Assembly (NCBI GenBank): GCA_016205145.1 | Contig: JACQJH010000001.1 | Location: 480,001-512,000, forward strand | Direction: 5' to 3' | Origin: Candidatus Iainarchaeum sp. | GTDB lineage: Archaea; Iainarchaeota; Iainarchaeia; Iainarchaeales; JACQJH01 | DNA: 32,000 bases | Shown: piece by piece, positions 5,981 through 32,000 of the stretch | Layout: each line of letters begins with the position of its first letter | Numbering within the stretch: the stretch's first letter is position 1 | Position numbers and translations under genes: made by a program | The notes under the pieces: generated by a model | The model's input: the letters and a program-made list of their open reading frames with translations, nothing else | Told to the model about the DNA's origin: nothing | Databases searched by the model: none

Positions 5981-6030
5981 CCCTTGCCAGAAAAATTTTT
6001 CTAATCGGTTATCGCAGGCTGTCGCAGGCA

Positions 6031-6087
6031 GAGGGTTTGAGCGTAGCGAGAACCCTCAACGTCGCACCCGCCGGGCGATGACGGCGA
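6031..6087 (+). repeat. structured tRNA 5' leader module, copy A (hairpin L1 + CAACGTCGCAC box + hairpin L2 with loop GGCGATGA)
   Basis: L1 stem is GAGGGTT (6031-6037) / AACCCTC (6051-6057). L2 stem is CGCCG (6069-6073) / CGGCG (6082-6086) with loop GGCGATGA, ending 1 nt before tRNA position 1. A homologous copy lies at 24016-24140. Confidence 0.6.
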
Positions 6088-6160
6088 GGGCCTGTAGCTC
6101 AGCTGGTAGAGCGCCGCATTCGCATTGCGGAGGCCACGGGTTCGAATCCCGTCGGGTCCA
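6088..6160 (+). tRNA. tRNA-Ala(CGC)
   Basis: 73-nt cloverleaf folded by hand: acceptor GGGCCTG/CGGGTCC with G3:U70, D arm GCTC/GAGC, anticodon loop TTCGCAT, T arm ACGGG-TTCGAAT-CCCGT, discriminator A. No encoded CCA. Confidence 0.93.
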
Positions 6161-6226
6161 AACACGCGCTTTCGATCGCGTGTGCCGAAACCAAGGCGTA
6201 TCACTGTCGTGATACGCCGGGTAAGC
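6161..6226 (+). repeat. structured tRNA 3' trailer module, copy A1
   Basis: Hairpin ACACGCG/CGCGTGT (6162-6183), linker GCCGAAACCAAGGCG, 10-bp hairpin GGCGTATCAC/GTGATACGCC, tail GGGTAAGC. Confidence 0.65.
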
Positions 6227-6230
6227 AAAA

Positions 6231-6261
6231 ACGCGCTTTCAGCGGGACCGAAACCAAGGCG
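6231..6261 (+). repeat. truncated second trailer-module copy (A2)
   Basis: Weak CGC-GCTTTCA-GCG hairpin followed by CCGAAACCAAGGCG (6248-6261). No second hairpin follows. Confidence 0.4.
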
Positions 6262-6300
6262 TACCGATGCTGCAGTTAACCGCGCGGGCTTGATTGTGAA

Positions 6301-7488
6301 TCAGGTTTTTGCAATCGCGTTTTCAAGTTCCGCAATCAAATCGTCCGCATTTTCTATTCCCACGCTCAGCCTCAGCAGGCCGTCGGTGATTCCTTTCCTT
6401 TTGCGCTCTTCCGGCGGCAGGGAACTGTGCGACATTGTCGCGGGGTGGCTGACCAGGCTTTCGACTCCGCCCAGGCTTTCGCCGTAGGTCCAGATGTGCA
6501 GATGTTCAACGAGTTTTTCCGCTGCCTTCAGCCCGCCTTTGAGCTCGAATGAAACCATTCCGCCGGATCCGGTCTGCTGTTTTTTTGCAAGGCCGTGCTG
6601 TGGATGCCCTGCCAGGCCTGGGTAATGCACTTTTTCCACTTTCGCGTTGCCTTCGAGGAATTCCGCGACTTTTTGCGCGTTCTTGTTGTGCTGTTCCATT
6701 CTCAGGTGCAGGGTTTTCAGGCCCCTCAATGCAAGGAAGCATTCCATCGAAGCCATTATGCCGCCGGTCGCGCGCGCATTGAACCGCAGGTTTTCTATGA
6801 GCTCCAAATCATCCGAGCTGATGCTGCCGCCGACCACGTCATTGTGCCCGGCATAGTATTTTGTGAGGCTGTTCAAGACAATGTCTGCGCCGAATTTTTT
6901 TGGCTTCTGGAAATGCGCGGTCAGGAAAGTGTTGTCCACAAGCAATGGAATGCCGCGGCGTTCACAGGTTTCCTTCATCGCCTTGATGTCGACAAGCTTC
7001 AGCATTGGGTTTGTGGGTGTTTCGACAAAAACAAGCTTTGTGTTCGGCTTGAGGCTTTTTTCAAGATTTTCGGGTTTTGTCAAATCAACGAAGTCGGCCT
7101 GCGCCCCGAACTTGTCCAGGACGCGCTTTGTCAGCCTGTAGAACCCGCCGTAGCAGTCGTCGTTGAAAATGATGTGGTCCTTGTTCGAGAGCGTGTGGAT
7201 CAGTGCCAATGACGCGGCAATGCCCGAGCCGAAGCAGACGCTTTGCCCGTAGCCTTCAAGATGCGACATCGCCTTTTCAAGAACCTCGCGCGTCGGCGTT
7301 GACATCCTGCCGTATTCGAAGCCGTGCGGCCTGCCGATGCCGGCCTGCCTGTAAGTTACGGCCTGGTGGATGGGCGTGCAAATTGCCCCCGTTGCGGCGT
7401 CCTGCTGGTTGCCGCCATGCACGCACAAGGTCTCGAAGCCCAGCTTCTTTTCCTCGCCCTTCCCAATCACGTCAAGTGTGTACGCCAT
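6301..7488 (-). CDS. Cys/Met-metabolism PLP-dependent enzyme (cystathionine gamma-synthase / beta-lyase / methionine gamma-lyase family)
   Basis: Motifs GFETLCVHGG, VFVETPTNPMLK and SLTKYYAGHNDV (PLP lysine). The ORF extends to 7548, but that 20-aa extension covers a TATA-like ATTATAAAAAG, so M21 at 7488 is preferred. Confidence 0.88.
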   Translation of the reverse strand: MAYTLDVIGKGEEKKLGFETLCVHGGNQQDAATGAICTPIHQAVTYRQAGIGRPHGFEYGRMSTPTREVLEKAMSHLEGYGQSVCFGSGIAASLALIHTLSNKDHIIFNDDCYGGFYRLTKRVLDKFGAQADFVDLTKPENLEKSLKPNTKLVFVETPTNPMLKLVDIKAMKETCERRGIPLLVDNTFLTAHFQKPKKFGADIVLNSLTKYYAGHNDVVGGSISSDDLELIENLRFNARATGGIMASMECFLALRGLKTLHLRMEQHNKNAQKVAEFLEGNAKVEKVHYPGLAGHPQHGLAKKQQTGSGGMVSFELKGGLKAAEKLVEHLHIWTYGESLGGVESLVSHPATMSHSSLPPEERKRKGITDGLLRLSVGIENADDLIAELENAIAKT

Positions 7489-7668
7489 CGAAGAAAACCC
7501 TCTGCTTACAGAAACCCCCTTTATTCTTTTTATAATAATTGTTGACATGATTATTCAAATGTGAATTTAGGCTTTTGAATCCGCTTTGCCGGAGCCCCGC
7601 GCCGGGGAAAAAGCTTTTTATTACCTTTAACCCTTATTCTGTCAAAATTTTTTTAGTTTGGTGGTGGT

Positions 7669-22638: not shown

Positions 22639-22650
22639 ATATTTAAAAAG
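22639..22650 (+). promoter_or_regulatory. putative TATA box (ATATTTAAAAAG) upstream of the structured non-coding block
   Basis: A/T-rich box about 25 nt upstream of a G-rich start near 22672-22679. It is near-palindromic, so the strand is ambiguous. Confidence 0.35.
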
Positions 22651-22674
22651 TTGCAGGCAAAAACCTTGAAAGTG

Positions 22675-22950
22675 TTGGGAGTTGAAGGGGCGAGTCATAC
22701 CGCTTGCGGTTCCCTGGCTTGCCCTCTCATTTTTATCCTGAGCCGCTTTCGTCCGGCTCGCCGTCTCGTCCGGCGGGTACGTTTTGTGGTGTTCGCGCCG
22801 TTGCGGAACACCACGCATGCTTTGCGGGGTTTGCAAGGGGTGCAACCCCTGCGTTTTATCCGGCTGGTTCGAAACCAAGGCGGCCTGCTGTTGCAAGCCG
22901 CCGAGTGAGTCAGTACTCCTGACCCTCCCCCGAAATTCCTGATTTTTTCC
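22675..22950 (+). ncRNA. candidate structured ncRNA / decayed tRNA-flank block (unclassified)
   Basis: GC-rich and dense in hairpins: ACCG-CTTG-CGGT at 22699, GAGCCG-CTTTCGTC-CGGCTC at 22740, GTGGTGTTC/GAACACCAC, and one more hairpin near 22835-22850. Possible closing stem 22687-22697 with 22920-22930 (9 of 11 bp). Orphan trailer-module copy at 22870-22910. T6 at 22943-22948. No convincing ORF. Confidence 0.35.
22870..22910 (+). repeat. orphan trailer-module copy (D), not attached to a tRNA
   Basis: CGAAACCAAGGCG, then the 10-bp hairpin GGCGGCCTGC/GCAAGCCGCC (one mismatch), then GAGTGAGT. Confidence 0.5.
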
Positions 22951-23031: not shown

Positions 23032-23235
23032 GCGGGGGTGGCGGAGCGGTCTAACGCGCCAGCCTTGAGAAACCTTTTTCTTTCTTGAGAAGAAAGAAAA
23101 AGCTTCAATGCAAAATCAAAGATTTTGCATGCATCAAAAATTTGATTTTTGATGTACCAAAAAGAAAGAACCGTTCTTTGTTTCAGGCAAGCTGGTATCC
23201 GAAAGGATGCGCGAGTTCGAATCTCGTCCCCCGCG
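23032..23235 (+). tRNA. tRNA-Ser(UGA) with a ~120-nt intron
   Basis: Class II tRNA. Acceptor GCGGGGG/CCCCCGC, 3-bp D stem, anticodon stem CCAGC (23059-23063) / GCTGG (23191-23195), loop CTTGAG^A, variable arm TATCCGAAAGGATGC, T arm GCGAG-TTCGAAT-CTCGT, discriminator G. Mature length 84 nt. Confidence 0.85.
23070..23189 (+). other. tRNA intron (canonical 37/38 position assumed; boundaries +/-1-2 nt)
   Basis: Central helix is CTTG (32-35) with CAGG (23184-23187). The 3' bulge is CA^A. The 5' bulge can be drawn as only 2 nt (relaxed BHB). Interior has four hairpins, including a perfect 13-bp one at 23074-23102. Confidence 0.7.
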
Positions 23236-23300
23236 AGCACGCAGTTTCGGCTGCGTGGAGCGAAACTAAGGCGGTTCACACTGTGAACCGCCGAGTAAGC
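23236..23300 (+). repeat. structured tRNA 3' trailer module, copy B
   Basis: Hairpin CACGCAG-TTTCGG-CTGCGTG (23238-23257), linker GAGCGAAACTAAGGCG, 10-bp hairpin GGCGGTTCAC/GTGAACCGCC, tail GAGTAAGC. Confidence 0.65.
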
Positions 23301-23387
23301 AAAAAAATCACATCGCGTTTTTCGCCTTGCAAAACCGGTTTCGTTTTTAAACATTTTCCACCCAATCTTGGACAAGGTGAGTTGTGG

Positions 23388-23978: not shown

Positions 23979-24015
23979 CAGCTTTTGGTATGTTAGGATA
24001 AGCCGCCGGGCGGCA

Positions 24016-24140
24016 GAGGCATTGAGCTTTTGCGAAATGCCTCAACATCGCACGTTGGCGACGAAAACGCGCTGAAAGCGCGTAGGGCTATGCGAGTGAA
24101 ACGAGCATAGTGCGTCGCACCAGACGGGCGATGACGTCTT
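24016..24140 (+). repeat. structured tRNA 5' leader module, copy C (expanded)
   Basis: L1 stem is GAGGCATT (24016-24023) / AATGCCTC (24036-24043), followed by CAACATCGCAC. Two extra hairpins follow: ACGCGC-TGAAA-GCGCGT and CTATGC-GAGTGAAACGA-GCATAG. Then GTCGCACC and L2, AGACG (24122-24126) / CGTCT (24135-24139), with loop GGCGATGA. Confidence 0.6.
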
Positions 24141-24324
24141 GCGGGGGTGGCGGAGTGGTCTAACGCGCCAGCCTGGAACTGCCCTTTCTTTTCTTTGAAA
24201 AAGAAAAGAAAGTGCAAGGTGCCCAAAGAAAAGAAAACGGGCCATTGCCCGGAAAAGGCGCTTTGCAAGGCACCAACAAGCTGGTTTCCGCAAGGAAGCG
24301 CGAGTTCGAATCTCGTCCCCCGCG
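24141..24324 (+). tRNA. tRNA-Ser(GGA) with a 100-nt intron
   Basis: Exons are nearly identical to tRNA-Ser(UGA). Anticodon stem CCAGC (24168-24172) / GCTGG (24280-24284), loop CTGGAA^A, variable arm TTTCCGCAAGGAAGC, discriminator G. Mature length 84 nt. Confidence 0.88.
24179..24278 (+). other. tRNA intron at the canonical 37/38 position with a good hBHBh' motif
   Basis: The 5' bulge is AA^C. Helix h' is TGCC (24180-24183) with GGCA (24269-24272). The central helix is CTGG with CCAA (3 of 4 bp). The 3' bulge is CA^A. A perfect 13-bp hairpin lies at 24184-24212. Confidence 0.8.
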
Positions 24325-24388
24325 TGCCGCTTTCGGGCGGCAGTGCCGAAACCAAGGCGTATTGCTAATCGCAATACGCCGAGTAGGC
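24325..24388 (+). repeat. structured tRNA 3' trailer module, copy C
   Basis: Hairpin TGCCGC-TTTCGG-GCGGCA (24325-24342), linker GTGCCGAAACCAAGGCG, 10-bp hairpin GGCGTATTGC/GCAATACGCC, tail GAGTAGGC. Confidence 0.65.
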
Positions 24389-24443: not shown

Positions 24444-24526
24444 GCGGGGTTACCCAAGCGGTTAACGGGAGCGGGTTGAGGGCCCGTAGCTTAGTGCTTA
24501 CAGCGGTTCGAATCCGCTACCCCGCA
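24444..24526 (+). tRNA. tRNA-Leu(GAG)
   Basis: 83-nt class II cloverleaf: acceptor GCGGGGT/ACCCCGC, D arm CCC/GGG, anticodon stem GCGGG/CCCGT, loop TTGAGGG, long variable arm, T arm AGCGG-TTCGAAT-CCGCT, discriminator A. No intron and no trailer module. Confidence 0.9.
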
Positions 24527-24587: not shown

Positions 24588-25709
24588 ATGATTAAGACAG
24601 AATCGCAGCTTTCAAACTACTTTTCTGGGTTCGAGGAACAGATAGGCAAGCACAACGCCCAGTTAATAATTGCTTTTGCCGAAAAGCACAGGGCGACCGT
24701 TACAGAGCCGAGCCTTCAACGAATTAGCACGGTTTGCATTCGTTTGAAGTCTATTGCCAAGTGGCTGAACAAGCCTCTGGACAGGCTAACCGAAGCCGAC
24801 CTAATCAGGCTTAACACGGCAATGCGCGACAAGGGCATGAAGTCAAGCGCGGACTACCGGCAATGCCTAAAGCACTTTTTCAAGCTGACCGACAAAAAGC
24901 GTTTCTATGACCTCATTGAATCAGAATACCTGCGAAACGTCAAGAAAAAGGGCACAGACCAGCTTGTGGACGCGGAAGAATTTTGGAGTCAAAGCCAATG
25001 CAACGATTATCTCATGGAAAGCCTTAACCGTTCCAAAAGGCACGGTGCGTTTGCTGCAATTTGGTTGTCGTGTGGCATGAGGCCGCATGAAATAATGGGT
25101 TTGCATAAGGCAGACCTTGAATTGGATGGACAAAGCCTTGTAGTCAAGGTTCGGAGCGGCAAAACCGGCAAAAGAACAATCGTGTTAAACGGCAACGAAG
25201 GAACAGGGGTTTTTCGATATGTTGAGCCTTACCTTGACACTTTGAAAGACAACGAAAAGCTATTTTCCCTGACTTACAAGGCCGTTGAAAAATGCCACCA
25301 CAACATTTGTGAAAAAATAGGCTTGCCGGAAGGCAAAAGCCGAAAGCTTTACATGAGCAGAAAACGGACTTTGACACGCTGGTATAACGAGTTTGGGCTT
25401 GTCAAGGCCGCCAAAATGTGCGGCCACGTGCAAGGCGGTCGGGCAATGAAACACTATTTGGACATGACCGACGAGGAATTGAAGGAAAACAAGCGGCCGG
25501 AACGCCTTGAAAACAAGGTTTGCCCCAATCCAAATTGCAAGCAAGTCAACGAACCGCTTAGCGGCCTATGCTCCAAATGCAGCAGCCCGCTGGACAGGGA
25601 ACGCTTTGACGAGCTGATAAAAAGCAGCTTGGACGAACTGGTTGAAACAAAAATTGCGCTGGCAATCGTCAAACTCCAAAATGAAGCCCTGAAACTCAAA
25701 ACCCAATAG
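24588..25709 (+). CDS. tyrosine recombinase / integrase with C-terminal zinc ribbon
   Basis: Catalytic-region motifs GMRPHEIMGL (Arg), KTGKRTIVL and GHVQGGRAMKHY (His..Arg..Tyr). CPNPNC...CSKC ribbon near the C-terminus. Confidence 0.85.
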   Translation: MIKTESQLSNYFSGFEEQIGKHNAQLIIAFAEKHRATVTEPSLQRISTVCIRLKSIAKWLNKPLDRLTEADLIRLNTAMRDKGMKSSADYRQCLKHFFKLTDKKRFYDLIESEYLRNVKKKGTDQLVDAEEFWSQSQCNDYLMESLNRSKRHGAFAAIWLSCGMRPHEIMGLHKADLELDGQSLVVKVRSGKTGKRTIVLNGNEGTGVFRYVEPYLDTLKDNEKLFSLTYKAVEKCHHNICEKIGLPEGKSRKLYMSRKRTLTRWYNEFGLVKAAKMCGHVQGGRAMKHYLDMTDEELKENKRPERLENKVCPNPNCKQVNEPLSGLCSKCSSPLDRERFDELIKSSLDELVETKIALAIVKLQNEALKLKTQ

Positions 25710-25735
25710 GCTGCCCTTCATGTGCCAACAAAAAG

Positions 25736-25744
25736 GTTATAAAT
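25736..25744 (+). promoter_or_regulatory. putative TATA box for a leaderless small membrane gene
   Basis: GTTATAAAT centred about 26 nt upstream of ATG 25766. Confidence 0.45.
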
Positions 25745-25765
25745 GCCAGACGATTTATTTACTGT

Positions 25766-25921
25766 ATGAATAGTGCCGGAGCAGGCAATGTTGATGCAAT
25801 AGCTGTTTTTGGTGTTGCCGGAGCGATTTTAGGCGCAATTTTTCCCATTTTTGGAACCAACACCGTCATAGTTGGGCTGTTTGCCGGCATAATAATAGGG
25901 TTCCTTATACAACGGGGGTGA
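25766..25921 (+). CDS. small membrane protein (51 aa), probable 5' part of a frameshifted gene
   Basis: MNSAGAGNVDAIAVFGVAGAILGAIFPIFGTNTVIVGLFAGIIIGFLIQRG*. Two hydrophobic helices. Below the ORF-track cut-off. Confidence 0.5.
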   Translation: MNSAGAGNVDAIAVFGVAGAILGAIFPIFGTNTVIVGLFAGIIIGFLIQRG

Positions 25922-26207
25922 TTTTCTGGACACCCCAACATATATAGCAATTTTTGGGCTGTTTGCAGTTCTCCTTCTAATATACCGAAAATTCGTTCTG
26001 AAAAAAGAACTGTCATACAGAATTTATTTTGTGGTTATTCTCGGAACGTTATCTGTTGCAGAAGCCACGTCCGCAATCATTTTGTATTTTTTTAATTTGG
26101 ATTTGGGGATTATAAGCAAAGATTTGCTGTTTGTCGTTGCGGGTGGCTTAATGCTTTTGTTTTCTTTGGGTTTTGTTTTTCGGGAAATTCGCGAGACCGA
26201 AAAATAA
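25899..26207 (+). pseudogene. open +1 frame encoding further TM helices with no canonical start (3' part of the frameshifted membrane gene)
   Basis: The frame is open from 25899 and reads ...LDTPTYIAIFGLFAVLLLIYRKFVLKKELSYRIYFVVILGTLSVAEATSAIILYFFNLDLGIISKDLLFVVAGGLMLLFSLGFVFREIRETEK*. The first canonical start (GTG) is not until about 26030. Confidence 0.45.
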
Positions 26208-26259
26208 GGTTAAGAGCGCTGGAAAAAGGAAAGAAAGGCACATTAGCGGTAGACTAAAA

Positions 26260-26736
26260 CTAATTCTTGCGTTTTCTATTTGAAGTCCTTCTTTTTGCTT
26301 TTGTCTTATAAACTTCGTTTACCAACTTGTTAGAGTAATAACCCCTAATATCTATGCCCAATTCTTCACATGCTTTTTTTCTGGATTTGCCTTGCCGCTT
26401 TTTATTTAAAAGCCTTTTTTTCAAATATTCTCGGTTGTGTTCTGGGCGAATGCCAGAAACCAAAATTTTTTGCACCTTGTTAAACTGTCTTTTCTTAATT
26501 ATCGACTTTTTCGACTCACAATAAAACCCATTTCTAAGAATATAACTGATTGAGCTAACTGGCATTTTCATTATTTCCGCTGTTTTTCTGATTTCAAATT
26601 CTTCCAAAAAGACCTCAAAAATATGTCTAACCTTGTTGGCTGCTTTCTTATCAATAGTCAAAACCTGTATTACCTTCTTTTCTAGTTTATAGCCTAGCGG
26701 GGCACGCCACAAAATTTTATTGCTCATACTAATCAC
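26260..26736 (-). CDS. serine-recombinase 'recombinase domain'-like DNA-binding protein lacking the resolvase catalytic domain
   Basis: APLGYKLE...LTIDKKAANKVRHIFEVFLEEFEIRKTAEIMKMPVSSISYILRNGFYC resembles the recombinase domain that follows the catalytic domain in large serine recombinases. Basic C-terminal tail. AT-rich, on the opposite strand to its neighbours. Confidence 0.55.
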   Translation of the reverse strand: MISMSNKILWRAPLGYKLEKKVIQVLTIDKKAANKVRHIFEVFLEEFEIRKTAEIMKMPVSSISYILRNGFYCESKKSIIKKRQFNKVQKILVSGIRPEHNREYLKKRLLNKKRQGKSRKKACEELGIDIRGYYSNKLVNEVYKTKAKRRTSNRKRKN

Positions 26737-26838
26737 ACTAGTTCTAACTGGGTTTTAAACCAATATGTGGGGTGGCTTCTTGAACAGTATTCGTCAAACT
26801 TTTTTAGAAATGTTTTTCTTGGTCAAAGGGGGTATACT

Positions 26839-27003
26839 ATGGGGATGATTATGCCATCACAAAAACGATTCGGGAAAAAAATGAAACTTTGCGTTAGCGA
26901 GGCAATGTTTGCCCGTTTGCAAAAACTCGCCAAAAAAGAGGAGACGACAATTGCGGAAATCGTTCGCGCCACCCTGAAAAGGGAAGTAGGGGCGGAATTA
27001 TGA
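26839..27003 (+). CDS. ribbon-helix-helix (CopG/Arc-like) protein
   Basis: KKMKLCVSEAMFARLQKLAKKEETTIAEIVRATLKRE fits a beta-strand/helix/helix RHH pattern. AGGGGG lies upstream of ATG 26839. The ORF opens at 26767. Confidence 0.6.
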   Translation: MGMIMPSQKRFGKKMKLCVSEAMFARLQKLAKKEETTIAEIVRATLKREVGAEL

Positions 27004-27110
27004 CCTTGTTCGCTGGAATTCCTGTGGAGAAAATTCGAAAAAGTGCGGAACTCCGCGAGGCGTTCCTTGAACTCAAAAAGGCTTTCGAGCCGGGGCGCAT
27101 TGAAAAATAA
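27000..27110 (+). CDS. 36-aa hypothetical ORF coupled to the RHH gene
   Basis: ATGA overlap with the RHH stop. MTLFAGIPVEKIRKSAELREAFLELKKAFEPGRIEK*. Below the ORF-track cut-off. Confidence 0.3.
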   Translation: MTLFAGIPVEKIRKSAELREAFLELKKAFEPGRIEK

Positions 27111-27151
27111 AAAAAGGCGAGGCCCTGCAAGACCTCGGCCAAAAAGAAGGT

Positions 27152-27415
27152 ATGCCAATGCAGATTACGATTTCTAGAAATAAAAGCACGGGGCTGGCGC
27201 TTTACGACGGCAAAGCCTGCGCGGTTTGCGGGGCAACGAAAGGAGGGGCAAAACGTTGGGTGTTTGTGTTTTCATACTGTCAAAAAGCCAAGGTTTGCGG
27301 CCCGTGCGTTTTTCAAATAGGCCCAGCAAATGTTTCCGAGTGGCTTGAAAAAAAAGCTGTTTTTGACAAAAAAGGCTATTTGACCGGCTTTCGGCCGGGG
27401 GTGGTCGTCCCGTGA
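27152..27415 (+). CDS. small zinc-ribbon protein
   Basis: CAVCG...CGPC pairs of cysteines. 87 aa. Confidence 0.5.
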   Translation: MPMQITISRNKSTGLALYDGKACAVCGATKGGAKRWVFVFSYCQKAKVCGPCVFQIGPANVSEWLEKKAVFDKKGYLTGFRPGVVVP

Positions 27416-28014
27416 CCTCTACACCGGATGAAACAACAACGCTTGAAGAGAGCAGGCGAGTTTCGGAATTGAAGCACCTGAGCAAGGAAGCTTTTTTGAT
27501 ACAGATTACCGCAACGGAAAAGAAGATTCAGGAAGCTTTAGTAGCTGTGAAAAAACTCCATGCCAATGCCGAAATTATTTTGCAGGGAACCGCACTTGGC
27601 AAATTTGGAAAACTCGCAGACAAAGCTTTTACAGTTCTTCAAAAAAATGGCCAATTTTCAACAAACGATGCTAGCAAATTTGGCGTATTTGGTTCAAGAG
27701 ACCTGGACAAACTCTTCACTGAAATCTCAAAACGTTATCCTGAAGTGCGAACACAAAAAACCACGTTGTACGGCTCCAACCAGAAAATTCGGGTCGCAGT
27801 AATTGACGTACACGAGTTCGAAAAGGCAAAATCTGGGCCTTACAATGACATTCGCAATTTTGTCGTTGAGAAAAATCCGACACGTGACCAACTCATTGAA
27901 AAGTTTGGCTGGGGCGAAAAAGTCGCTAATGATACAATCGCATTGCTTGCGCGGAAGGGAATGCTTTGCTGGTCAGATGGCAGATATTCCTGGGAGGACG
28001 CTCAACTAGTCTGA
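27412..28014 (+). CDS. hypothetical protein with C-terminal winged-helix-like region (candidate Rep/iteron-binding protein)
   Basis: 200 aa, overlapping the previous stop. C-terminal NPTRDQLIEKFGWGEKVANDTIALLARKGMLCWSDGRYSW. Lies immediately upstream of the iteron-like region. Confidence 0.5.
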   Translation: MTSTPDETTTLEESRRVSELKHLSKEAFLIQITATEKKIQEALVAVKKLHANAEIILQGTALGKFGKLADKAFTVLQKNGQFSTNDASKFGVFGSRDLDKLFTEISKRYPEVRTQKTTLYGSNQKIRVAVIDVHEFEKAKSGPYNDIRNFVVEKNPTRDQLIEKFGWGEKVANDTIALLARKGMLCWSDGRYSWEDAQLV

Positions 28015-28177
28015 GGGAGTTGGGTTGTTGTAGAGTAGTATAGTAGAGTTGAAAACATATATCTCAACTAACTCCCCCCTACTTAGTTGGGTACGTTATA
28101 GGTCTATGAAAAATTATGAGAGAAAAGGAATGTTCCCAACTGGTTAAGGGGAGTTGGGTATTTTGTAAGGTGTTTTT
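28015..28177 (+). repeat. iteron / inverted-repeat region (candidate origin or operator)
   Basis: GGGAGTTGGGT at 28015-28025. GGGGAGTTGGGTA at 28148-28160. TAGTTGGGT at 28084-28092. Inverted CCCAACT at 28135-28141. Inverted pair GGGAGTT (28015) / AACTCCC (28070-28076). AGTTGA/TCAACT around the A/T core AAACATATATC. Confidence 0.6.
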
Positions 28178-28438
28178 GTGAAAAAGTCTGAAACTCAGCT
28201 TGTCCGAACAAACCTTTTGTTGCCTGAGTCTTGCCGGGCTGTGTTGAGGTTAGTTGGCTCTGGTAGCTTGTCAAAAGGTTGCAGAATTTTGGCACAGCAG
28301 GCGATTAAAACAGAGTTTGCGGCTGGCAGGCCGCGAAAATTTGACGGCGGGAAAGGCAAGGAAAATGTTGCGCATTACCACACTGGTTTTCAGAGTGCTT
28401 TCGATATACTTGAACAGCAAAAGAAGGTGGTTGGTTGA
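28178..28438 (+). CDS. hypothetical RHH-like small protein
   Basis: GTG start. VRTNLLLPESCRAVLRLVGSGSLSKGCRILAQQAIK fits a strand-helix-helix pattern. Confidence 0.45.
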   Translation: MKKSETQLVRTNLLLPESCRAVLRLVGSGSLSKGCRILAQQAIKTEFAAGRPRKFDGGKGKENVAHYHTGFQSAFDILEQQKKVVG

Positions 28439-28659
28439 ATAAAAAGAAGCGGCAAAGGCGTGTGCAGGAGTTTCTGTTTTTGGACGAGCCAACGCCCACA
28501 GCCTTGTTCCTGAAGCTGAACCGGCTTTCAAGGCAAGGCTGGCGAACCGAAATTACTGACGTCCACCATACCGAGTTTTTCCGTTCCTGCACGGCTGTTG
28601 TTTCGTGGCGTCGTGTCATGCCGCGTTTTAGCATTTCCTACACGGGAAAGGGAAACTGA
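28435..28659 (+). CDS. hypothetical basic protein (74 aa)
   Basis: TTG start overlapping the previous stop. No family recognised. Confidence 0.35.
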   Translation: MNKKKRQRRVQEFLFLDEPTPTALFLKLNRLSRQGWRTEITDVHHTEFFRSCTAVVSWRRVMPRFSISYTGKGN

Positions 28660-28678
28660 AGTCAAAGGAGGACTGACT

Positions 28679-29044
28679 ATGAAAAATGCAGAAATTAAGA
28701 AAACAAAAGAAGAAACGCCATCAACCCTTGGGAACGAAACGTCTGATGAGGAAGCCGAACCAGGGCCGAAACCCAAAGGCAGGCCGCCGAAATCTTCCAT
28801 AAAAATCGAAGGCGAACCGCAGCAGGACGCGTGCGAAAAAATGCAGCAGTTGGCAATTTGTTTGACCTCGATTGACATGAGCAAGCTTTCATGGCTGAAG
28901 AGGAAAGGCCATTTTTCATACCTGTCCGAAACGATGCGGGAACTCGTGCGTGCCGAGTTTTTGCGGCTGCACCCCGAACCACCATTGTGGCCGGATGATA
29001 GTGTTTGGAAGAAACAGGGGAAGGACAAGACGACGGTTGGTTGA
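28679..29044 (+). CDS. hypothetical protein with acidic/AT-hook-like N-terminus and RHH-like C-terminus
   Basis: AGGAGG lies 7 nt upstream of ATG 28679. Contains PKPKGRPPKS and QLAICLTSIDMSKLSWLKRKGHFSYLSETMRELVRAEF. Confidence 0.5.
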   Translation: MKNAEIKKTKEETPSTLGNETSDEEAEPGPKPKGRPPKSSIKIEGEPQQDACEKMQQLAICLTSIDMSKLSWLKRKGHFSYLSETMRELVRAEFLRLHPEPPLWPDDSVWKKQGKDKTTVG

Positions 29045-29053
29045 GGCAAGAAG

Positions 29054-29260
29054 GTGGTTTGTTTGGTGAAATCGAGGCGAAAGCTGCTCAACGAACTCGG
29101 CGGCTTGAGGCGCAGCAATAACGCTTTGAAAAGCGAGCTTGACGCATTAAGATTGCCGGAAGGCGAGCTTTGGCGCAAGGCGCATACATTGTTTCAAGAA
29201 AACCTGCGGCTTCGTGCAGAATTGGAACAGATACGAAAACAGAGGGCTAGTTTCCCATGA
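29054..29260 (+). CDS. small coiled-coil protein
   Basis: Heptad-like L/E/R-rich sequence ALKSELDALRLPEGELWRKAHTLFQENLRLRAELEQIRKQ. Confidence 0.4.
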   Translation: MVCLVKSRRKLLNELGGLRRSNNALKSELDALRLPEGELWRKAHTLFQENLRLRAELEQIRKQRASFP

Positions 29261-29346
29261 AACCCGCAGCAATCGCACAGGATTCACACAACTTCTGACA
29301 GGATTGCAACCAAAACAGACCTTTTTGGGCGTTTTTCAGTCATTTT

Positions 29347-29369
29347 AAGCCCATTTTGGGCTTGTTTTG
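29347..29369 (+). terminator. hairpin plus T-run (possible terminator of the 28178-29260 gene block)
   Basis: AAGCCCA-TTT-TGGGCTT (29347-29363) followed by GTTTTG. Confidence 0.35.
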
Positions 29370-29543
29370 AAGCCTTTTCCGGCTGCTTTCTCGGCCGGTG
29401 AGGGGTGTGTGTGAGATGCTTTTTGCTGGGCTACTTTTATCTGTAAACCCCATTAAATGATTCGCAAAGTAATTTGACGATTACCAAAAAAATTTTTTTC
29501 GATGGCAACTGCTGCCGCAATAGCATTTGTTTAGGGTGGTTGG

Positions 29544-30068
29544 ATGGCTCGGAAAATCATTGGGCGATACCTATTATCGAGAGGTGTCTCTATTATTGGC
29601 CGGTCAAAAATCAAAAACAAAGCCAATTTTCCAAAAAATTTTCAGAAAACCGAGTATCGACTCGACGAAAAGAAAAGCGTTTACTTGCAATGGGCTGAAA
29701 TCAGGGATGCGTGGGTTAACTTCCAAAGCCTCGATGACCTGACCACTTGGCTGGAAGACATTTTGCCTAACGCTTCCGGCAAATATTATATCAGATGCTT
29801 CGCTGAATGGCACGCGTTCATTCCCCAGCCAACCACAAAGAAACGGTTGAAAAGAAAACGCGGCCGACCGTTCAGCAAAAAGGAAAGAAAGTTTAGAATT
29901 GGTTGGGACATCATTTGTGCCTTTGCCATAGAATCCGGCACGGTAATGAGAGTCTTCGCGCACAAGCGAGGCAAAACCGATTATTCGCCGAAGCGGCGGA
30001 ATGCTTACTGGCTTTTGGGTGCAATCCAAGACCAGAAGGAAGGCAAGCATGTCTTCGACCAGATTTAA
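29544..30068 (+). CDS. hypothetical protein (174 aa)
   Basis: GGGTGG lies upstream of the ATG. The composition looks more protein-like than the overlapping minus-strand ORF. Contains a basic KKRLKRKRGRPFSKKERK stretch. Confidence 0.5.
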   Translation: MARKIIGRYLLSRGVSIIGRSKIKNKANFPKNFQKTEYRLDEKKSVYLQWAEIRDAWVNFQSLDDLTTWLEDILPNASGKYYIRCFAEWHAFIPQPTTKKRLKRKRGRPFSKKERKFRIGWDIICAFAIESGTVMRVFAHKRGKTDYSPKRRNAYWLLGAIQDQKEGKHVFDQI

Positions 30069-30597
30069 AGGCGGGCAAAGCCTACATGCTTTTTTCGCAA
30101 ACCATTTGCCTTCAACCCGCAACGCCCTGCCCCGCAAACGGTTAAGGCATTGCCAGCAAGGGAGTTTAGTAGAAAAGCCCCGCATTTGCCTTCAAGCCAA
30201 GCAGGAGCGCGGGCGCAAAAGCCTTGCAGTTGAAATTAAGCCATGCCAACAAAAGATTAACCATGCTGGCTGCGCGTCCATAAAATCATTTGCGAAAATC
30301 GCAAGCCAAAAGGGCAGGAGTTGTGAGGCCATTTCTCATTAAGGCCTTAACACTTTTGAAAAGCGTTGACGAATACAAGCCCTTTCCCGAAAACCCTTTC
30401 GACTATTCCAGCCAGCCCCTTGTGCAGAAAAGCCCCACAGAAGGCTTCAAGGCTTTCCACTTCACCGGCGAAAAATGCCTAAAGAATAGTTCAACATATG
30501 CAGCAAAAACATTGCGCTTTTGAAAAGTGTTTGCCTTTCAATCAAAAGCCTTCAACGCTTCTCTAAAGGGTCAATTGTTTTTCATTCATTTCTCGTT
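30069..30597 (+). repeat. repeat-bearing, probably non-coding region of the element
   Basis: Exact 13-nt CATTTGCCTTCAA at 30103-30115 and 30183-30195. Related GTTTGCCTTTCAA around 30529-30542 and AAGCCTTCAACG around 30546-30557. Only weak basic ORFs (30001..30342, 30290..30523). Confidence 0.4.
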
Positions 30598-31446
30598 TTA
30601 TTGGAGTTGCACTTCAATTGGAATTGCTATTTCTGGAGTGCCACAAATAATAGAATATGGCGTCACTGAGTTGTCAACTTGTCCAACACAAATGGTAACT
30701 GAGCCTGCTTCATTCTGGCTTGTAGAGCCATAACTCGAATAAGCTATTTTTAGTACAGTGCTTTGTTTTGGTCTTAAATTATATAACTCATCTTCGAACC
30801 CTATAATACCAACGTTATGCGATGTGCTATTAATTGACGTTCTAATGCCCTGCACCTCAAAATCAGAATCGTTTGTTATTGTAAGTGTTTTTTCATCCTT
30901 ATAGACCGTTTCTTTGATACTTGGTTCGTTTGGATAAACCGGCATGCTTTTCGGAGTCAAATCAATTTTTTTCGGGGCGACTTCCAGTTTTATTTCTGGC
31001 GGTGGAATTTGGAATGTTTTGCAGTCGGATGAATTAGACACGCAATAACGGATAGGGGAAATTTCTAGAGACTCTGATTGCAACAGTATGCCAATGAGAG
31101 AAGCTGAACAAACACTTTGTGGTTCACAAGAAATAGTGGTTGGCAAAGAGTCCACCGCGCTAATGCTATCATAATATATATTTAGCTCAATAGCTTTACC
31201 TTCATTTGACTTATTTTCAAATTTTACCTCTGCTGTTCCAATGGGTCTTATATCTTGTTTTGCGCCTATCGCCGCCATATCAATTGGATAGATAGATTTC
31301 CAGTTTGCCCCTTTAAATTCAATCGAGTCTATTTTAGGTTGGGCTTGTTGGATACAGCCGGTTAAAAAAATTCCTGTCAAAAAGACTGCAATCAAGATTA
31401 GCAAAATATTCCGGCCAGGTCCTAATTTTTCCCAATTATTGTTCAT
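30598..31446 (-). CDS. secreted lipoprotein-like protein, unknown function (AT-rich)
   Basis: N-terminal TM/signal ILLILIAVFLTGIFLTGC with a lipobox-like LTGC. The remainder is beta-rich with S/T/N/I composition. Confidence 0.6.
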   Translation of the reverse strand: MNNNWEKLGPGRNILLILIAVFLTGIFLTGCIQQAQPKIDSIEFKGANWKSIYPIDMAAIGAKQDIRPIGTAEVKFENKSNEGKAIELNIYYDSISAVDSLPTTISCEPQSVCSASLIGILLQSESLEISPIRYCVSNSSDCKTFQIPPPEIKLEVAPKKIDLTPKSMPVYPNEPSIKETVYKDEKTLTITNDSDFEVQGIRTSINSTSHNVGIIGFEDELYNLRPKQSTVLKIAYSSYGSTSQNEAGSVTICVGQVDNSVTPYSIICGTPEIAIPIEVQLQ

Positions 31447-31535
31447 TATACCACACTCTTATTGTCAAAACCCAGTATAAATATGTTACGTTACTGTTAC
31501 TCTGGCTTTAATTTAGGGGTTCAGTCACTAATTCT

Positions 31536-31784
31536 ATGTCTGAGTATGACCTGTTGGCGCAGATTAGGCGCGGCAAGATTAAACCCCAAATCCTTAAGCT
31601 TTTACAAGAACCAAAAACGCCAACAGACTTGAAAAAGATTATCGGAGCCCATAGAGAAACAATCAGCAGAGCAATACTCGAAATGGAAGAAAAAGGCCTA
31701 GTAACTTGTCTGAACCCAAAACAACCAAACTTTAGGTACTATCAAATTACAAACAAAGGAAAAAACCTATTGAAGAAAGTATGA
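31536..31784 (+). CDS. small winged-helix transcriptional regulator
   Basis: 82 aa. PTDLKKIIGAHRETISRAILEMEEKGLVTCLNP...YYQITNKG fits an HTH plus wing pattern. Confidence 0.6.
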   Translation: MSEYDLLAQIRRGKIKPQILKLLQEPKTPTDLKKIIGAHRETISRAILEMEEKGLVTCLNPKQPNFRYYQITNKGKNLLKKV

Positions 31785-31802
31785 GAATTTCTTATTTGCA
31801 CC

Positions 31803-32000
31803 CTAGTTAAGTAATTTTTCGCATTCTGCACTTGATTCACGCCATATACAAAATGTTACTTCTTTTTCTAGGGGGTATGACTGTTCTGTGCAATTTTCAC
31901 AATAGAGGGATACATTTAATTTGTGTAAGCCCACGGGGACGTTTTCTGGGTTACACTTTTGTTTATGTGCCCCGTCTGGCCTCTCGCTGCAGGCATTGAA
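31803..32000 (-). CDS. C-terminal fragment of a Cys-rich protein (N-terminus beyond window)
   Basis: The minus frame is open from the window edge to TAG (31803-31805): ...CSERPDGAHKQKCNPENVPVGLHKLNVSLYCENCTEQSYPLEKEVTFCIWRESSAECEKLLN*. Confidence 0.35.
   Translation of the reverse strand, partial: FNACSERPDGAHKQKCNPENVPVGLHKLNVSLYCENCTEQSYPLEKEVTFCIWRESSAECEKLLN

Follow-up and report, generated by a model that had tools for sequence, protein, structure and literature searches.

A Conserved Two-Hairpin Module Downstream of tRNA Genes and in rRNA Operon Spacers of a Groundwater Diapherotrites Clade

Introduction

In a small clade of groundwater Diapherotrites, which are uncultured DPANN archaea, most tRNA genes and the spacers of the rRNA operon carry, downstream and on the same strand, a module composed of two hairpins and conserved single-stranded parts. 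The module has a defined position and strand, its pairing and its unpaired parts are conserved, and its copies turn over between relatives. It is previously undescribed and new as a motif: in a search of the window (the whole 32-kb stretch of DNA that was analysed) with the 4227 models of Rfam 15, only tRNAs pass the gathering score, nothing meaningful is found over the modules or the region of the diverged copy, module D, even at E-values up to 5-10, and the searchable literature holds no description of the motif or of its sequence. The statement of the initial annotation that no element with such a layout had been described is therefore borne out.

The 3' flanks of tRNA genes are usually regarded as disposable sequence, and no description of conserved structured trailers common to unrelated tRNA genes was found for archaea. 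Should the module serve as a signal for processing or for docking of a protein, it would indicate that this lineage matures its stable RNAs with a step of its own. If it is released as a stable RNA, it would constitute a new family of tRNA-linked small RNAs, and if it is only a repeat, it is an example of a palindromic repeat that is exactly targeted to the 3' ends of stable RNAs. The covariance model (CM) described below is directly usable on DPANN genomes.

Modules in the 32-kb Window

Three full modules of about 65 nt, termed A, B and C, start 0-2 nt past the discriminator of tRNA-Ala(CGC), tRNA-Ser(UGA) and tRNA-Ser(GGA), respectively, the gap between the discriminator and the first hairpin being 1 nt in module A, 2 nt in module B and 0 nt in module C (Table 1). 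Each module consists, in this order, of a first hairpin (HP1) of 7-9 pairs with a loop of the U-UUCG-G/A type, a linker of 11-13 nt, a second hairpin (HP2) of 10 pairs with a variable 3-5-nt loop, and the tail GRGUARGC. All three fold as two hairpins with z-scores of about -4.4 to -5.1, which none of 200 shuffled sequences equals. The coordinates and sequences initially reported for these modules proved accurate when rechecked on the sequence.

Table 1. Features of the window and module copies on related contigs. Contig names precede positions outside the window.
Feature	Position	Strand	Basis
tRNA-Ala(CGC), discriminator A at 6160	6088-6160	+	ARAGORN; Rfam tRNA 70.9 bits
Module A, whole	6161-6226	+	CM 84.7 bits, E=3e-19; fold z=-5.1
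Module A HP1, ACACGCG/CGCGTGT, loop with TTTCG	6162-6183	+	sequence, fold
Module A conserved linker GCCGAAACCAA	6184-6194	+	pattern count, alignment
Module A HP2, GGCGTATCAC/GTGATACGCC, loop TGTC	6195-6218	+	sequence, fold, pairing test
Module A conserved tail GGGTAAGC	6219-6226	+	alignment
Decayed tandem second copy after module A	6234-6289	+	CM 13.5 bits, E=0.15
First T5 run after tRNA-Ala trailer, possible termination signal	6306-6310	+	sequence
Linker CGAAACYAAGGCG sites	6186, 6249, 22870, 23261, 24347	+	pattern count
TATA-like box before module D unit	22640-22651		sequence
Conserved non-coding unit, module D at its 3' end	~22655-22948	+	alignment with L129, L131
Module D (full but diverged)	22843-22910	+	CM 43.9 bits, E=4e-9
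T6 run ending module D unit	22943-22948	+	sequence
tRNA-Ser(UGA), ~117-nt intron at 37/38	23032-23235	+	Rfam tRNA 39.1 bits; sequence
Module B, whole	23236-23300	+	CM 78.6 bits; fold z=-5.0
Module B HP1, CACGCAG/CTGCGTG	23238-23257	+	sequence, fold
Module B linker GAGCGAAACTAA	23258-23269	+	sequence
Module B HP2	23270-23292	+	sequence, fold
Module B tail	23293-23300	+	sequence
T5 run downstream of module B	23318-23322	+	sequence
tRNA-Ser(GGA), ~97-nt intron at 37/38	24141-24324	+	Rfam tRNA 43 bits
Module C, whole	24325-24388	+	CM 79.3 bits; fold z=-4.4
Module C HP1, TGCCGC/GCGGCA, zero gap from discriminator	24325-24342	+	sequence, fold
Module C linker	24343-24355	+	sequence
Module C HP2	24356-24380	+	sequence, fold
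Module C tail	24381-24388	+	sequence
tRNA-Leu(GAG), without module	24444-24526	+	ARAGORN; CM
Integrase gene, downstream of tRNA-Leu	24588-25709		gene calls
Copy behind tRNA-Pro(UGG)	L031	strand of tRNA	CM
Copy behind tRNA-Gln(CUG)	L069	strand of tRNA	CM
Copy behind tRNA-Lys(CUU)	L087	strand of tRNA	CM
Copy ~110 nt past 16S rRNA 3' end	L027 171-233	strand of 16S	CM
Copy behind tRNA-Ala(UGC), before 23S	L027 493-555	strand of tRNA	CM
Two tandem copies behind tRNA-Ser(UGA)	L131 344-404, 408-471	strand of tRNA	CM
Module D orthologues	L129 342-418; L131 5-62		CM

The 13-nt linker CGAAACYAAGGCG occurs in the window with at most one mismatch at five sites, every one on the plus strand, where 0.18 sites are expected and shuffled sequences never reach five. 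Two of these sites had been interpreted in a way that needs to be amended. The truncated extra linker reported at 6248-6261 is present as a linker (6249-6261, an exact match) but does not stand alone: it belongs to a degenerate second copy in tandem with module A, in which the linker is kept, the hairpins have decayed and the fold has no advantage over shuffled sequences. The copy reported at 22870-22910 indeed has no tRNA, but is not an orphan. It is part of the full module D, which is located within a conserved non-coding unit and is composed of a diverged HP1 region, the linker TTCGAAACCAA, HP2 of GGCGGC.../...GCCGCC and the tail GAGTGAGT.

Modules follow three of the four tRNA genes of the window, the exception being tRNA-Leu, which abuts an integrase element. 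The results of the CM scan and the position of the integrase gene confirm the early observation that this tRNA lacks the module and has the integrase element in its 3' flank; no att repeat of tRNA-Leu was found within the window. Module C is situated in the 119-nt spacer upstream of tRNA-Leu. CCA is not encoded by the tRNA genes of the window. ARAGORN detects only tRNA-Ala(CGC) and tRNA-Leu(GAG), and both tRNA-Ser genes, which it misses because each has a long intron at 37/38, come from the Rfam tRNA model.

Copies in Related Contigs

Related contigs were obtained by a pattern scan of metagenomes and, for orthologous contigs, via the FKBP gene. A covariance model built from seven copies detects at least 13 copies in the window and related metagenome contigs at the acceptance threshold of E<1e-4. 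Four of the related contigs were identified through the pattern of the module itself, which biases the module counts of these contigs. Among the matches listed in the metagenome pattern scan, at least four are true loci, and most of the others fall by chance in coding DNA. In the representative genomes of GTDB, a scan for the exact pattern yielded two chance matches only, and the viral contigs scanned for the pattern likewise yielded chance matches only.

All 13 copies are on the same strand as the neighbouring stable-RNA gene, and minus-strand CM matches cover only the palindromic HP2. The tRNA-linked copies all start 0-4 nt past the discriminator; this is the range in L031, L069, L087, L027 and L131, and it narrows to 0-2 nt in the window. 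The tRNAs bearing such copies are tRNA-Ala(CGC), tRNA-Ala(UGC), two tRNA-Ser, tRNA-Pro, tRNA-Gln and tRNA-Lys. The association with unrelated tRNAs, always on the tRNA strand, which was proposed from the window, thus holds and is extended by the related contigs to Pro, Gln, Lys and Ala(UGC). The copy of L031 is located between two tRNA-Pro genes. L027 is a fragment of a 16S-tRNA-Ala-23S operon, and the module is therefore present in both of its spacers. Accordingly, the view of the module as a tRNA-trailer element is correct for the copies behind seven tRNAs, but not as an exclusive description, given the copies in the rRNA spacers of L027 and in the module D unit.

Within the clade, three tRNAs lack the module: tRNA-Leu of the window, tRNA-Pro(GGG) of L031, downstream of which is A+T-rich DNA, and the tRNA at L087 26-127. 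In more distant Diapherotrites, four loci (L130, L137, L145 and L146) contain no module and have T-runs directly after the tRNAs. This absence indicates that the element is limited to a narrow clade and, together with the module-less tRNAs inside the clade, that it is not essential for tRNA maturation in general. The GMP synthase (GuaA) of the window is 100% identical to MBI4052881.1, encoded by a Candidatus Diapherotrites MAG. The homologues of the FKBP and GuaA proteins of the window are named Diapherotrites or Iainarchaeum, and show at most 61% identity outside a few groundwater metagenome contigs. In a 90%-identical relative, synteny at the tRNA-Ala locus is broken and no tRNA is located there.

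Conservation of Pairing and of Unpaired Parts

In the CM alignment of the 13 copies, which is fitted to the same structure as that under test and in which cells are not independent events because the copies form subfamilies, 94.1% of 221 cells form standard pairs across both hairpins. Sliding the 3' partners by 1-3 columns drops pairing to 22-46%, and none of 500 shuffles matches the observed values. Both sides have changed in 12 of the 18 pairs (5 of 8 in HP1 and 7 of 10 in HP2). By contrast with these variable stems, the linker and tail are nearly invariant across copies, and seven copies behind six different tRNAs share 32 invariant columns in the loop, linker and tail. The stems thus vary yet stay paired while the unpaired parts remain constant, indicating a real signal, which is probably exerted at the RNA level. 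This agrees with the initial annotation, in which the stems were described as held by compensatory changes and the linker and tail as constant. Sequence patterns that would speak against such a structure had been named there beforehand, namely a lack of covariation in a larger alignment and a dispersed repeat with neither tRNA association nor strand bias; neither pattern is found.

DNA-level correction of palindromes can likewise produce 'compensatory' changes. G.U pairs (8) are not clearly more frequent than A.C pairs (4), and wobble pairing therefore does not point specifically to the RNA strand. As most of the unpaired positions never vary, no covariation backs pairing inside the conserved loop. 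An ACY/RGU helix was considered; it is paired in 81% of cells, yet 58 of 500 shuffles reach its overall pairing, and it is unsupported.

A loop E/bulged-G (sarcin-ricin) motif, as speculatively proposed in the initial annotation, is a tentative candidate for the conserved loop. Most module copies have GAA 5' and AGUA 3' of HP2, the former being found in 11 and the latter in 8 of the 13 copies, with GGUA, GAUA, AGUG or degenerate sequences in place of AGUA in the others. The module differs from this motif in five extra nucleotides (ACYAA) opposite a single G on the HP2 side, and a loop-E closing helix (columns 48-50 with 89-91), with 43.6% of cells paired, is not supported.

Transcription Context and Proposed Role

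Archaeal transcription usually terminates at T-runs. Such a run, of nine or six T, begins 8-10 nt past the tail in L069 and L087, and in the window, T5 or T6 runs are located about 27-80 nt downstream of modules A, B and D, the distance from module A to its T5 run being 80 nt. T-runs are thus found after the module and not between tRNA and module, which places the module upstream of likely terminators. Module C and the copies of L031 and L027 are located between co-oriented, closely spaced stable-RNA genes. Together with the positions of the T-runs, this is most simply explained if the primary transcript includes the module. No tRNA precedes module D or its orthologues; their unit is preceded by a TATA-like box and followed by a T6-T8 run. 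Over its first ~110 nt, the module D unit is 100% identical to L129, although the neighbouring proteins are only 78% identical.

The preferred reading, to which a probability of roughly 0.45 is given, is that stable-RNA precursors are transcribed together with the module as their trailer or spacer, which would be cut off at the tRNA 3' end, with hairpins that insulate or protect and a loop that docks a protein. RNA polymerase would read through the tRNA into the module before reaching the T-run or the next stable RNA. The tRNA 3' endonuclease (tRNase Z in archaea) would then cut after the discriminator, 0-2 nt before HP1; tRNase Z cuts past the discriminator irrespective of the trailer sequence. 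The two G+C-rich hairpins, HP1 capped by a UUCG-type loop and the 10-bp HP2, would prevent pairing between flank and tRNA and would block exonucleases. The invariant CGAAACYAA on the 5' side and GRGUAAGC 3' of HP2 would constitute an irregular internal loop that docks a putative processing or chaperone protein. The RNA so released would start 0-2 nt before the UUCG-capped hairpin and end after the 10-bp hairpin, and is expected to be exonuclease-resistant. From these features of the sequence, we infer that the module is transcribed and cut off behind the tRNA, that its loop binds a protein and that its hairpins protect or insulate.

The same released RNA might instead be a functional tRNA-linked small RNA, with the conserved linker and loop acting in trans, an alternative that deserves attention although it is unlikely. 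Its 5' end would be set by tRNase Z and its 3' end by termination at the T-run, and the terminal hairpins would make it long-lived; in trans, it would bind a protein, as a sponge or ligand, or would seed base pairing, its abundance being coupled to stable-RNA synthesis. In line with this idea, HP1 is so close to the predicted cut (0-2 nt) that the 5' end would be protected, the copies of L069 and L087 have a T-run immediately after them, and the module D unit, with its TATA-like box and T6-T8 run, suggests that a copy may be expressed on its own. A conserved single strand between two stable hairpins is also the layout of many regulatory small RNAs. The search for partners of the linker argues otherwise, since it reveals no outstanding target: the most stable duplex within the window has -23.2 kcal/mol, compared with -19 to -20 kcal/mol for shuffled sequences. 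Moreover, the linker of the module D orthologue in the closest relative (L131) has strongly diverged, and the rRNA-spacer copies would need further processing for release.

RNAs that are linked to an upstream tRNA and matured by the tRNA 3' endonuclease include bacterial 3'ETS-leuZ, the tRNA-C/D-box units of Nanoarchaeum equitans, plant tRNA-snoRNA genes and MALAT1/mascRNA. Like these, the module is a second structured RNA directly 3' of a tRNA, on the same strand, in one transcription unit and upstream of T-runs, and its 5' end would come from a cut after the discriminator. In the known cases, one RNA is linked to one tRNA, whereas the module recurs behind many tRNAs and within the spacers of rRNA operons; C/D and H/ACA boxes are absent from it, and any target or accumulation is hypothetical. 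A broader proposal is doubtful too. In it, the module represents an abundant small RNA or RNP platform of a new class, which would be produced in stoichiometric amounts with tRNAs and rRNA, released by the tRNA 3' endonuclease from nearly all stable-RNA transcripts and protected by its two terminal hairpins. The invariant loop would in that case titrate or recruit a protein, thereby coupling some process to stable-RNA output, and a conserved 5' leader hairpin of the tRNAs (see below) would belong to the same lineage-specific precursor architecture.

Turnover of Copies and the Repeat Interpretation

The FKBP proteins of the window and L131 are 92% identical, and the 3' half of tRNA-Ser and the downstream promoter region are almost identical between them. 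Despite these near-identical flanks, the tRNA-Ser(UGA) trailer of L131 has an extra module, with two copies in tandem and stems differing from those of the window. In the module common to both, both stems have changed, and the linker and tail are kept. Hairpin types also recur behind different tRNAs: HP1 is identical in the tRNA-Ala copy of the window and the tRNA-Gln copy of L069, HP2, including a C.A mismatch, is identical in the tRNA-Pro copy of L031 and the tRNA-Lys copy of L087, and both tRNA-Ser trailers of L129 open with one variant hairpin. Replacement of trailers and recurrence of hairpin types indicate that copies move or are converted from one locus to another, so that not all of the compensatory differences arose independently in situ. 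This suggests that the copies constitute a repeat family, homogenised and reshuffled between loci via duplication or gene conversion. The initial annotation had contrasted a selected RNA structure with a recently copied repeat. The selected pairing is upheld, but the contrast is lost with the replaced and duplicated trailer of L131 and the recurring hairpin types: judged by its copies, the element is both a selected structure and a copied repeat. Rapid replacement, tandem duplication and decayed copies look more like a repeat family than like a tight cis signal, which speaks against a trailer signal.

In its strict form, the repeat interpretation holds that the element is a selfish or neutral palindromic DNA repeat of the REP/BIME or MITE type, or a by-product of gene conversion at tRNA flanks, and that its stems are kept by DNA-level quasi-palindrome correction or by transposase hairpin recognition, not by RNA selection. 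This would account for the change in copy number and stems at an orthologous site, the tandem copies (6161-6289 in the window; L131 344-471), the decayed copies (6234-6289 in the window; L129 756-812), the recurring HP1 and HP2 types and the similar numbers of G.U and A.C pairs. A repeat nature also explains why assemblies break at tRNA loci in these genomes, as short-read (Logan) contigs end at these tRNA flanks. In common with REP/BIME elements and MITEs, the module is short, rich in G+C and present in several copies, forms hairpins and lies in non-coding DNA that is transcribed, with tandem and decayed copies, compensatory stems and fast copy-number change between relatives.

REP-like elements, however, are scattered over many intergenic regions in both orientations. 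The module has one orientation in 13 of 13 copies and an exact position at stable-RNA 3' ends, with the tRNA-linked copies of seven tRNAs starting within 0-4 nt of the discriminator. In the window, which is a small sample but was not selected on the module, copies are confined to two tRNA-bearing regions and none is found in the other intergenic regions, nor is dispersal in both orientations seen. The module also differs from REP/BIME elements and MITEs in having two unlike hairpins with invariant unpaired flanks, and free stems with fixed unpaired parts are the reverse of what transposase hairpin recognition would require. No transposase is present in the 32-kb window or near any copy. With these points against it, a purely DNA-level repeat is unlikely.

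Transcription Signals, Ribozymes and Other Known Motifs

A role as a transcription-level signal, in termination or bidirectional insulation or in modification of RNA polymerase like boxB-boxA, is very unlikely. The closely following T-runs of L069 and L087 would suit such a role, and a simple scan rates HP2 with the following TTGGTTTCG, read on the minus strand, as terminator-like. In addition, the module resembles boxB-boxA and other rRNA-spacer elements, being present in both the 16S-tRNA-Ala and the tRNA-Ala-23S spacer, also after the spacer tRNA, and joining a hairpin whose sequence is free to a linear element that is conserved. Its sequence is, however, unrelated to bacterial boxA, and we know of no archaea with NusB. 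Archaeal termination relies on T-runs without hairpins, and copies lie both before terminators and inside read-through operons (L027, L031 and module C), so that neither a terminator nor an antiterminator role fits all of them. A terminator with a T-run at each hairpin was likewise rejected, being true for L069 and L087 and failing for L027, L031 and modules C and A.

That the module is a small self-cleaving ribozyme, forming the tRNA 3' end by cleavage at its 5' boundary, is hardly credible: variable stems, an invariant core of ~25 nt, a length of ~65 nt and a position exactly at the tRNA 3' end are as in HDV-like and hatchet ribozymes, but no Rfam ribozyme family matches at E-values up to 5-10, a hammerhead core cannot be assembled on inspection, the sole candidate tertiary pairing (UUUCG with CGAAA) is sterically implausible, and L027 171-233 and module D adjoin no mature RNA end, leaving no obvious cleavage role.

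That pairing would correspond to an H-type pseudoknot, in which (G)UUUCG(G) of the HP1 loop would pair with (C)CGAAA(C) of the linker. The complementarity is perfect, but a strand of about 3 nt must cross a 7-bp stem, and the pairing cannot covary because both sides are invariant. The complementarity may reflect an alternative pairing, or a coincidence of the UUCG-type loop.

Other candidates were rejected on inspection. A kink-turn has no register with GA opposite GA beside a 3-nt bulge, box C/D is excluded as the module contains no UGAUGA or CUGA, and H/ACA, HDV-like fold and attC-like readings each fail a defining feature. The bulge-helix-bulge stems of archaeal rRNA precursors are not matched, as both hairpins are continuous and neither the tRNA junction nor the internal loop has that geometry; moreover, the module also ends single tRNA genes before T-runs. 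A CRISPR repeat is not consistent with copies that are single or double behind tRNAs and with a sequence after GAAAC that is conserved, not variable. As for the hammerhead, GAAAC is present, but there is no CUGANGA before HP1. GAUGA is present outside the module, in the loop of a separate 5' leader hairpin; for a hammerhead assembled from this GAUGA and the trailer GAAA, the pairing of leader and trailer is out of register by one in tRNA-Ala and is missing from the other copies. The SSU models of Rfam give no match over the modules. By eye, in comparison with L027 1-59, the linker and HP2 bear a tentative resemblance to the 3' region of 16S rRNA (CGUAACAAGG, the 10-bp helix 45 and GGAUCA).

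The conserved 5' leader hairpin ends 1 nt upstream of the tRNA 5' end. Besides the module, the tRNA genes of this DPANN host have unusually long introns and structured leaders.

A 5' leader module of tRNAs

Several tRNAs have a common 5' leader module which is distinct from the trailer module. In this leader, a hairpin (e.g., GAGGGTTT...AAACCCTC) is followed by the box CAAYGTCGSAC and then by a last hairpin, the stem of which covaries (CGCCG/CGGCG vs AGACG/CGTCT) and the loop of which is GGCGAUGA (or GGCGAAAU, GGCGUU). The last hairpin ends exactly 1 nt upstream of the tRNA 5' end, and therefore these pre-tRNAs would carry hairpins abutting the acceptor stem at both ends. Like the trailer module, the leader module is found at some loci and is missing from the orthologous locus in a relative. 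In Logan contigs of the same organism (L001, L002, L134, L135, and L136), short-read assembly breaks at tRNA leader and trailer regions, consistent with the tRNA flanks being multi-copy repeats.

Features in the window and in related metagenome contigs (L027, 16S-tRNA-Ala-23S operon fragment; L129 and L131, relatives of the window locus; L031, carrying two tRNA-Pro genes)
Feature	Source	Positions	Remark
5' leader module	Window	6029-6087, 24000-24140
5' leader module	L027	340-418
5' leader module	L129	500-582, 1545-1679
Tyrosine-integrase gene	Window	24588-25709	Starts 61 nt past tRNA-Leu
tRNA-Pro(GGG)	L031	3488-3560
Conserved non-coding stretch	Window	22655-22780	Unit about 22640-22948
Conserved non-coding stretch	L129	190-330
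HP2 read as terminator-like	Window	6195-6218, 22879-22902, 23270-23292, 24356-24380	Minus strand, simple scan
PLP-enzyme gene	Window	6301-7548	Minus strand
16S rRNA 3' region	L027	1-59
tRNA-Ser gene	Window	23032-23235	Intron at 37/38, about 117 nt
tRNA-Ser gene	Window	24141-24324	Intron at 37/38, about 97 nt
tRNA-Ser gene	L131	188-342
tRNA-Ser genes	L129	583-753, 1680-1863

Signs of integration at tRNA 3' ends

The DNA following the integrase gene, to position 32000, is of lower G+C content (41-47%) and contains many small ORFs without Pfam matches; on account of this and of the integrase gene, 24588-32000 is probably an integrated element, which would explain the absence of the trailer module at tRNA-Leu. 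No att repeat was found within the window. The other in-clade tRNA without the module, tRNA-Pro(GGG), is directly followed by A+T-rich DNA atypical of the host, a hint that here, too, DNA has integrated at the 3' end of a tRNA gene.

A conserved non-coding unit

Over about 110-120 nt of non-coding DNA, the window and L129 share 100% identity, in contrast to 78% for the flanking proteins. Upstream of this stretch is a TATA-like ATATTTAAAAAG; downstream are module-like hairpins, module D (a diverged copy not behind a tRNA) and a T6 run. The stretch matches no Rfam family at E up to 10, and may be a new gene for a small stable RNA.

Likeness to terminators and 16S rRNA

On the minus strand, the second module hairpin (HP2) followed by TTGGTTTCG gives a terminator-like score in a simple scan, and module A, after tRNA-Ala(CGC), is located immediately 3' of the PLP-enzyme gene, which is convergent to it. 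The SSU model has no match over any module; by eye only, there is a loose resemblance between the 16S rRNA 3' region (UGUAACAAGG followed by helix 45, of 10 bp, and by GGAUCACCUCC) and the module's CGAAACYAAGG, 10-bp HP2, and tail GRGUAAGC or GGAUAAGC.

Introns of tRNA-Ser genes

The introns of both window tRNA-Ser genes are very long, A+T-rich, and hairpin-forming, and such long-intron genes were detected by the Rfam tRNA model only, being overlooked by ARAGORN. Intron length varies among close relatives, in which the Ser-UGA gene is 204, 155, and 171 nt long.
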